Numbered from the stretch's first letter, positions 63,722-63,990 are shown. The stretch: 64,000 nt of DNA from Capnocytophaga leadbetteri (GCF_938018165.1 NZ_CALIIH010000010.1); one strand, 5' to 3'. Numbers and translations: made by a program. The notes: generated from the sequence alone by a model not told the origin.

Positions 63722-63990
63722 CCCTTGTCTCACCCGCCCCACTTGTCCCACCTGTCTCACCTGTCTCACCTGTCTCACCTGTCTCACCTGTCTCACCTGT
63801 CTCACCTGTCCCATCTGTCTCACCTGTCCCATCTGTCTCACCTGTCCCACCTGTCTCACCTGTCCCACCTGTCTCACCTGCCCCACTCATCCCACCTGCC
63901 CCACATCTCTGCCCGTGCGGCTCGCACTCTCACCCGTCCCACTTGTCCCACTTGTCCCACTTGTCCCACTCCTCCCTCAATCGCCTGTGC
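63722..63990. repeat. Long 9-bp tandem repeat array. The plus strand reads cacctgtct / cacctgtcc / catctgtct (about 22 units). Next comes a 'gcccgtgcggctcgc' element, then a second block cacccgtcc / cacttgtcc x3 / cactcctcc, then a second 'gcctgtgcggctcgc' element running off the window.
   Basis: Read directly. The GC content is far above the local background. The reverse complement (the pyrG strand) reads tgagacagg / tgggacagg, the same TGRGANRGN consensus as the array at 2482-2573. Confidence 0.85.

Follow-up and report, generated by a model that had tools for sequence, protein, structure and literature searches.

REP and BIME elements of enterobacteria are intergenic mosaics of short palindromic units and other motifs, present in many copies per genome, and are targeted by the IS3-family element IS1397. 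The VNTR or minisatellite loci used for MLVA typing (e.g., the mycobacterial MIRU) are intergenic head-to-tail repeats with units of 40-100 bp. Contingency tracts are found at nadA of the meningococcus, hmw1A of Haemophilus, and vlhA of Mycoplasma gallisepticum. These tracts are promoter distal and consist of TAAA repeats at nadA (PMC2791445), 7-bp repeats at hmw1A (PMC8262952), and GAA repeats at vlhA (PMC6258824). The closest known system to the arrays analyzed here is BrickBuilt of Porphyromonas gingivalis, a 23-nt minisatellite within a MITE that is framed by a leader and a tail, occurs in 19 intergenic copies, and has bidirectional promoter activity (Klein et al. 2015, PMC4596501).

We analyzed a stretch of 64,000 nucleotides from Capnocytophaga leadbetteri (the window), at the end of which a G-rich 9-bp tandem array lies upstream of pyrG. 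With a probability of roughly 0.65, this array is a non-coding, hypervariable minisatellite, one copy of a dispersed Capnocytophaga mosaic family, which evolves by slippage and whose copy number is near-neutral; it is probably neither a gene nor an on/off switch. With BrickBuilt it shares a host among the oral Bacteroidota, a spacer-less tandem array, many intergenic copies, strain-variable number, a limited host range, and, at the pyrG locus, a leader and a tail that flank the array. The two differ in unit length (23 nt against 9 nt here) and have no sequence similarity. BrickBuilt has small inverted-repeat ends and measured promoter activity, whereas neither terminal inverted repeats nor target duplications were found in the Capnocytophaga spacer and the array holds no promoter motif; conversely, palindromic anchors of 23-25 nt are embedded in the Capnocytophaga arrays, which also combine units of more than one type. 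REP/BIME elements are likewise intergenic, palindrome-containing mosaics, and IS3-family ends are found at three of our arrays (L042, L043, and L104). Their units form inverted pairs, with an associated tyrosine transposase, while the Capnocytophaga anchors are single and all in direct orientation within an array, and BIMEs lack the long 9-bp tandem array that makes up the bulk of the Capnocytophaga element.

The tracts of nadA, hmw1A, and vlhA are similar in that short tandem repeats lie outside the core promoter, undergo slippage, and differ between strains, and here too the repeat number differs between closely related strains. Those tracts serve surface or virulence genes, with demonstrated effects on expression and regulator sites, whereas the array neighbors housekeeping genes, is much longer (up to ~40 units), belongs to a genome-wide family, and is not known to affect expression; with promoters assigned by motif, it lies neither between core promoter elements nor in a 5' coding region. 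Strain-specific copy number and a fast molecular clock are features in common with MLVA loci, as are head-to-tail units and differences by unit multiples (18 or 36 bp) between the closest strains; the 9-bp unit, the purine- and G-rich strand, the internal anchors, and the mixed unit types set the array apart from them. It is a real feature, beyond chance expectation, best explained as a largely ordinary VNTR within a seemingly undescribed lineage-specific family, and on present evidence it does not reveal a new regulatory mechanism. After BrickBuilt in Porphyromonas, it provides another case in the oral Bacteroidota of lineage-specific minisatellites filling intergenic space.

The array between purE and pyrG

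The features of the pyrG region, with positions counted from the first nucleotide of the window, are as follows.

60166 to 61986, minus strand: yidC, which follows pyrG
62010 to 63626, minus strand: pyrG, encoding CTP synthase; the product matches a partial protein of C. leadbetteri at 100% identity
63643 to 63673, minus strand: putative pyrG core promoter of the Bacteroidota type, with the -33 TTTG at 63670-63673 and the -7 element TAATTTTG at 63643-63650
63648 to 63890, minus strand: spurious 80-aa ORF (Gly-Glu-Thr/Gly-Gly-Thr) that runs into the pyrG promoter and lacks conservation from strain to strain
63698 to 63723, minus strand: conserved tail GGGATTATGGGGAGAAAGAATAGGCG, which separates the array from the pyrG promoter and keeps its position in every allele
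63724 to 63904, minus strand: proximal block of 20 head-to-tail 9-bp GTGRGACRR units
63905 to 63929, minus strand: type-1 anchor GAGTGCGAGCCGCACGGGCAGAGAT, 25 nt
63930 to 63978, minus strand: distal block of 5 units (GAGGGAGGA, three of GTGGGACAA, GTGGGACGG) plus GTGA
63979 to 64000, minus strand: type-2 anchor (G)AGGGCGAGCCGCACAGGCGATT, truncated where the window ends

At 63720-63970, a 9-bp tandem array is called by Tandem Repeats Finder, with periods of 9, 18, and 36, and a two-unit degenerate pattern agrees, matching 24 times within the array against 0.11 matches expected from shuffles. The whole array occupies 63724-64000 and continues past the window edge. In the sense of pyrG, its GTGRGACRR units are arranged as 20 + 5, together with two 23-25-nt anchors (GAGTGCGAGCCGCACGGGC...); the first-pass annotation, made from the same sequence, had counted about 22 + 5. 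Its description otherwise holds for the position upstream of pyrG, for the high local GC content (62% in the array, 38.5% in the window), and for the higher-order structure. An 18-bp period is found at 63726-63904 (9.9 copies, 91% matches, score 253), because GTGGGACAG and GTGAGACAG alternate through most of the proximal block, the terminal units of which are degenerate, and the GC-rich anchor sequence GCGAGCCGCACRGGC occurs exactly twice, at 63911-63925 and 63983-63997. The core of the type-1 anchor, GTGCG-AGC-CGCAC (63915-63927), is a 13-nt palindrome. Together with the GTGA that precedes it, a GTGR lead-in, this anchor measures 29 nt and shifts both the 9-bp and the triplet register by 2.

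For comparison we used 10 contigs with an identical PyrG, retrieved by exact-protein look-up with 10 kb of flank, and 2 with a 99%-identical PyrG, all 12 from human oral metagenomes; the match to PyrG at NCBI is named 'CTP synthase, partial [Capnocytophaga leadbetteri]'. In 12/12 contigs a divergent purE (Pfam AIRC) is located upstream of pyrG with the array between both genes, and the array is therefore intergenic rather than part of a larger gene. The spacer measures 432-757 bp across the 12 contigs. Read from purE, it opens with the promoter region of that gene, followed by a stretch that varies and by a conserved leader (~170 bp); then come the array, its tail, and the promoter region of pyrG. 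The array ends 97-98 bp from the pyrG ATG in every allele. At its other end, the closest strain (L010) and L001/L002 have ~100 bp of further TGGGAGGMW/GTGGGACRR units preceding a type-2 anchor of the kind cut by the window edge, with the leader and purE beyond these units. L010 thus suggests that some 100 bp more of units may lie beyond the window, and, as judged from the contigs, the array would extend at most a few hundred bases past it. The proposal that the window ends within a larger repeat-containing element is borne out by this arrangement, with more units, the ~170-bp leader, and the purE promoter beyond the edge.

The purE-proximal 100 bp of the spacer occur as two unrelated haplotypes, with the breakpoint inside the leader. 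One (L003, L005, L006, and L248) is marked by an A/T hairpin together with a short array of TGGGAGGNC, and the other (L001, L004, L007, and L249) has AT-rich 8-mers and the palindrome ATTGCGTTATTCGCAAT. A known RNA family was ruled out by an Rfam search of the L001 and L004 spacers, with no match at gathering scores and none at E<=1 in the spacer.

Bacteroidota promoters are characterized by a -33 TTTG and a -7 TAnnTTTG element. A gap of 16 nt separates the -7 box of pyrG, TAATTTTG, from the ATG, and a TTTG is found 19 nt upstream of this box; the assignment is made by motif and by a position conserved in four species. A second box, TAGTTTTG, lies 19 nt farther upstream and lacks a correctly spaced -33 element. 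At purE, a TAnnTTTG box is found 19-23 nt before the ATG. Scanning the spacer revealed consensus promoter boxes only beside purE and pyrG, the unspaced second pyrG box included, and none in the array. In three related species, with PyrG 95, 93, and 89% identical, the TAnnTTTG box of pyrG is located 14-18 nt before the ATG, the spacers measure 91-180 bp, and the 9-bp array is absent at pyrG. As the position of the box is conserved in these relatives without an array, the core promoter of pyrG most likely lies close to the gene, downstream of the array. That promoter, together with an array end fixed at 97-98 bp, argues against a phase-variable promoter of the spacer type, which had been put forward from the window sequence. 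A fixed distance separates the array from the motif-assigned -33 and -7 elements downstream of it in every allele, and these elements occupy the same position in the array-less relatives; with the array outside these elements, promoter-spacer phase variation was ruled out. Transcription may nonetheless run through the pyrG array.

The gene upstream of pyrG differs in four Capnocytophaga lineages, being purE, an M48 peptidase gene, an acyltransferase gene, or an unknown gene (L112-L117 against L001-L010), while the pyrG-yidC pair is conserved across all four. As the three relatives have no array and have other upstream genes, the array is a lineage-specific addition at a synteny breakpoint, and its position coincides exactly with the rearrangement breakpoint upstream of pyrG.

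The first-pass annotation had also pointed to a perfect Gly-X-Y frame from the ATG at 63890 and to the end of a larger gene with collagen-like repeats. The frame does read (GET)n/(GGT)n, a resemblance to the bacterial collagen-like proteins (Scl and BclA; Pfam PF01391) that arises because the 9-bp unit begins with GGT, and the resulting 80-aa ORF starts with ATG and has Gly at each third residue. Small ORFs are also predicted across the array by gene callers in some metagenome contigs. The frame is not perfect, however, since the 29-nt step of the type-1 anchor breaks it and a stop is met at the anchor. Likewise, six open frames had been claimed across the array; the three plus-strand frames are open at 63722-63990, but those of the minus strand contain 11, 1, and 2 stops. 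Pfam scanning of 63648-63890 and of a 121-aa ORF from L004 returned 0 families at E<=0.01, collagen included. Elsewhere the array ORFs start with TTG or GTG and change in start, length, and frame from strain to strain; no such ORF is present in the 3-unit allele of L005. The array has no continuous conserved ORF, profile match, or flanking domain such as collagen-like proteins have; the window ORF overlaps the pyrG promoter and shows neither a signal peptide nor a non-repeat domain, and the array sits between divergent purE and pyrG instead of inside a larger gene. A collagen-like gene is, as judged from these sequence comparisons, refuted by the profile scan, the frame analysis, and the strains alike, and we give next to no credence to a small repeat protein either. 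The array instead accounts for spurious 'hypothetical protein' calls in the region.

Length polymorphism among strains

Parsing of the alleles into units and anchors in the 12 contigs and the window (13 sequences) gave 11 distinct array alleles, so that the suspicion of length polymorphism was strongly borne out. The arrays measure 58, 75, ~103, 122, 202, 204 (twice), 240, 245, 263, 373, and 374 bp, with at least 277 bp in the window, but all alleles derive from short-read metagenome assemblies, which may collapse or mis-join arrays exceeding the read length, and the unit counts of the longest ones are therefore uncertain. Blocks always comprise n x 9 + 4 nt and then an anchor in all parsed alleles. 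Across the 3461 bp of pyrG and yidC, L001 and L002 are identical, yet their arrays differ by 18 bp; L008 and L009, also without a difference over these 3461 bp, differ by 36 bp in the array. Such 18- and 36-bp differences despite identical flanks are a signature of slipped-strand mispairing or unequal exchange. The same array allele was recovered in L007 and L009, which come from independent projects. The window is nearest to L010 (35 differences), with which it has the proximal end in common. In each strain a unit dimer of its own prevails, e.g., GTGGGACAA/GTGGGACGG in L007-L009 and GTGAGACGA/GTGAGACGG in L010, which indicates local homogenization.

When placed together, these observations are consistent with an array that would grow, shrink, and homogenize through slipped-strand mispairing or unequal recombination, in blocks of 9, 18, and 36 bp, with array change far outpacing substitution in the flanking genes. 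Instability driven by hairpins was ruled out, as the units have no Watson-Crick self-structure (MFE 0; 200/200 shuffles fold at least as well). Because the array is placed upstream of both core promoters, is untranslated, and ranges from 3 to ~40 units in strains with identical PyrG, we infer that copy number would be close to neutral, with at most a graded, modulatory effect on the pyrG and purE promoters. An empty site, from which the ends of the element could be defined, was not found among the 12 strains, and every strain retains the leader, at least one anchor, and at least three units; this retention could mean that a minimal element is under selection. For an abundant commensal of the human mouth, the array is in practical terms a strain marker that changes very fast, separating strains that are identical over kilobases of flank.

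A dispersed repeat family in Capnocytophaga

A search for further arrays in the genome, raised by the first-pass annotation, was positive both in the window, where a second array is found, and in C. leadbetteri DSM 22902, where a three-unit pattern detects arrays at no fewer than seven loci on six or more contigs, that is, the many dispersed intergenic copies per genome typical of a BrickBuilt-type MITE. The arrays of DSM 22902 mix GTGRGACRR with TGGGAGGMW units, and those at L052, L073, and L104 carry the same kind of anchor; the L104 array has two anchors and is located upstream of pyrH. With the anchor pattern, at least 24 further metagenome loci with anchor and array are found, with a GC content of 32-48%, one of which is placed in Capnocytophaga through its flanking GH92 protein. 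The family consists of G-rich 9-bp arrays (GTGRGACRR, TGGGAGGMW) with 23-25-nt palindrome-containing anchors, often with a conserved leader, scattered intergenically. Full-text literature searches on Capnocytophaga turned up nothing relevant on tandem repeats, minisatellites, or repetitive elements, and the family appears to be undescribed.

Further repeats of the window are listed here.

2484 to 2573, plus strand: second, degenerate, purine-rich array (TGRGARGNN x ~10), from Tandem Repeats Finder
4460-4561, 8308-8342, 48591-48617, 52361-52416, and 58001-58035: AT-rich 8-bp repeats
1330-1470 and 25609-25645: repeats of ~11 bp (TTCGCTTATCS) ending in CTTCCTATATC

The second array starts right after a promoter-like box, TAtTTTTG (~2466-2475), and ends 40 bp before the ABC-F ATG at 2613. 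As it lies between this box and the ATG, it is probably transcribed as part of the ABC-F 5' untranslated region. Ten strains have 2 alleles of it, 18 bp apart (spacer of 207 or 189 bp), with identical flanks and many unit substitutions. So few alleles are expected if instability scales with length and purity, as this tract is shorter and impure.

Shared sequence also connects loci that are not orthologous. The pyrG-locus leader is 71% identical over 131-153 bp to one non-orthologous leader (L186/L247), whose array lies beside a Kdo-transferase gene, and a tail-like motif was seen by eye in L052; most other copies of the array have different flanks. The 25-nt anchor shared by unrelated loci indicates that arrays were copied between loci rather than born independently. 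At the Kdo-transferase locus of L247, from a Capnocytophaga-like genome (reverse strand, ~11360-11560), the anchor plus one 9-mer (38-39 bp) is itself repeated tandemly five times, and anchors can thus also be amplified within a higher-order repeat.

Arrays are often joined to a block of the 11-mer TTCGCTTATCS with CTTCCTATATC and to AT-rich 8-mers. The 11-mer block also occurs in the leader of the purE-pyrG spacer and at L042, L141, L163, L201, L211, and L245, often adjoining 9-bp arrays on either side, and could represent a small RNA or another element of the dispersed kind. The AT-rich 8-bp tandem repeats (AATTGACA/AATTAGCA/AATCGACA) form a separate family, found mostly just past the 3' ends of genes; similar AT-rich repeats of 7-8 bp are located upstream of pyrG in related species (L112, L116, and L117).

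Insertion sequences adjoin several arrays. At three DSM 22902 loci, of which two are located at contig ends, an array borders directly on an IS3-family end (TGTCATATCCTAAAATAGGTTTACAC..., with the transposase start MTKGRAEIVRYSD...).

L042, ~130-145: IS3-family end
L043, ~6503-6633: IS3-family end
L104, ~1880-2012: IS3-family end

At L219, an ISAs1-like transposase adjoins an array. The arrays may be preferred insertion sites. Arrays with adjacent insertion sequences are found at several contig ends of the DSM 22902 draft and may contribute to assembly breaks; moreover, the synteny breakpoint at the pyrG array and the insertion sequences next to several arrays suggest that the family may play a part in rearranging the genome. 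In the purE-pyrG spacer, an inverted-repeat search found no terminal inverted repeats for the array element: the strongest pair was formed by the two promoters, and the others, of 10-20 nt, were weaker, with none at the putative element ends.

Promoter tuning, polarity, and neutrality

As extreme copy-number polymorphism is seen here beside two promoters, it could be speculated that the array is a tunable cis-regulatory rheostat. The unit number would then change the DNA upstream of the pyrG promoter, the purE promoter, or both, whether by shifting an upstream site in distance or phase, by modifying local DNA structure, or by changing the G-quadruplex load, and strains or subclones would express nucleotide-synthesis genes at different levels, in the manner of the distal tracts at nadA, hmw1A, and vlhA that serve as precedents. 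The only canonical G-quadruplex motifs in the 64-kb window (G3 N1-7, four tracts) are found in the distal block, and their number varies with the array allele. In addition, arrays abut the -33 region of the neighboring promoter at several other loci, and pyrH, which like pyrG is a pyrimidine-nucleotide gene, has an anchored array upstream. Against this, the tract lies outside the -33/-7 spacer, at least 45 bp upstream of the -33 element, and the pyrG of related species keeps the same promoter position without it. The family is moreover found in every intergenic context, including 3' ends, convergent genes, and positions beside unrelated genes, and housekeeping genes would be unusual targets for contingency switching, so that we regard tuning of this kind as unlikely. 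Taken further, the family might be an actively spreading mosaic system of 9-mers, 25-nt anchors, and leader/11-mer blocks, in which the anchor is the recognition site of a mobilizing or organizing protein and the arrays have a role in chromosome biology or act as tuning knobs for promoters. This is speculative and unlikely, but it would imply that strand-polar, G-quadruplex-capable arrays act as a polarity signal or barrier in replication or translocation, or that the promoters tuned include those of the nucleotide-synthesis genes pyrG, purE, and pyrH.

A structural or protein-binding array with chromosomal polarity is, in our view, decidedly unlikely, although several observations are compatible with it. 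Here a hypothetical protein would recognize the 9-mers or anchors, for instance as a signal that orients a translocase or recombinase (as KOPS and Chi do), as a nucleoid protein, or as a mobilizing transposase, or G-quadruplexes would act as barriers. Among the matches listed, 31/38 arrays have their G-rich strand on the locally G-rich, probably leading strand, as read from the GC skew, and both arrays of the window point toward the probable terminus at ~43 kb. The anchor core, with its 5-bp stem, is intact in most of the 69 instances among the matches listed, and one double change that preserves pairing (GTGTG/CACAC) is found at 4 loci; the recurrence of one 25-nt anchor among many unrelated loci speaks for copying over independent birth, and the IS3-family ends at three arrays would suit mobilization. 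However, the skew is a bias and not a rule, with 7/38 of the listed arrays opposite, and it is confounded with gene orientation and neighboring arrays. Known polar motifs are dispersed single sites, not arrays of 20-40 copies. The hairpin of the anchor folds only weakly (-4.5 to -5.8 kcal/mol, z ~ -1.7), intermediates of the double change occur, and several variants break the stem. Terminal inverted repeats were not found in the spacer, and the recognizing protein has no named candidate. The near-neutral minisatellite remains the reading we prefer, with the reservation that pure neutrality does not predict the GC-skew bias, for which orientation-dependent stability could be the cause.

Two related candidates were rejected. 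Strict co-orientation with flanking genes held in the first 8 loci and failed in the larger sample, where, among the matches listed, the downstream gene is on the same strand as the array in 16 cases and on the opposite strand in 9. The likeness of the 9-mer to a DnaA box was dropped, with ~5/9 positions matching by eye.

The probable terminus is itself visible in the window. At ~42000-44100, a positive GC skew gives way to a negative one and plus-strand genes to minus-strand genes, with convergence at 43727/44028; this part of the window, at ~42-44 kb, is probably the replication terminus region. One tRNA gene is found inside the region of skew change.

43806 to 43879, minus strand: tRNA-Gly(TCC)

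Coding repeats are present as well. The OmpA-family and beta-barrel genes at 54278-57141 contain in-frame tandem repeats of 21, 27, and 42 bp (Tandem Repeats Finder, 55005-55098 and 55414-55517). In strains with identical PyrG (L001-L010, ~17500-19460), the OmpA-domain product can be as short as 355 aa or as long as 415 aa, and this variation in length indicates that coding repeats are also unstable in C. leadbetteri. Elsewhere in the window, at 8380-8875, one frame of a 565-bp gap between called genes resembles the C-terminal part of a metallophosphoesterase-like protein (...YGHHHFNQPDFKVGNTQLLTNQLGY...) and may represent a truncated gene or one that starts with a codon other than ATG.
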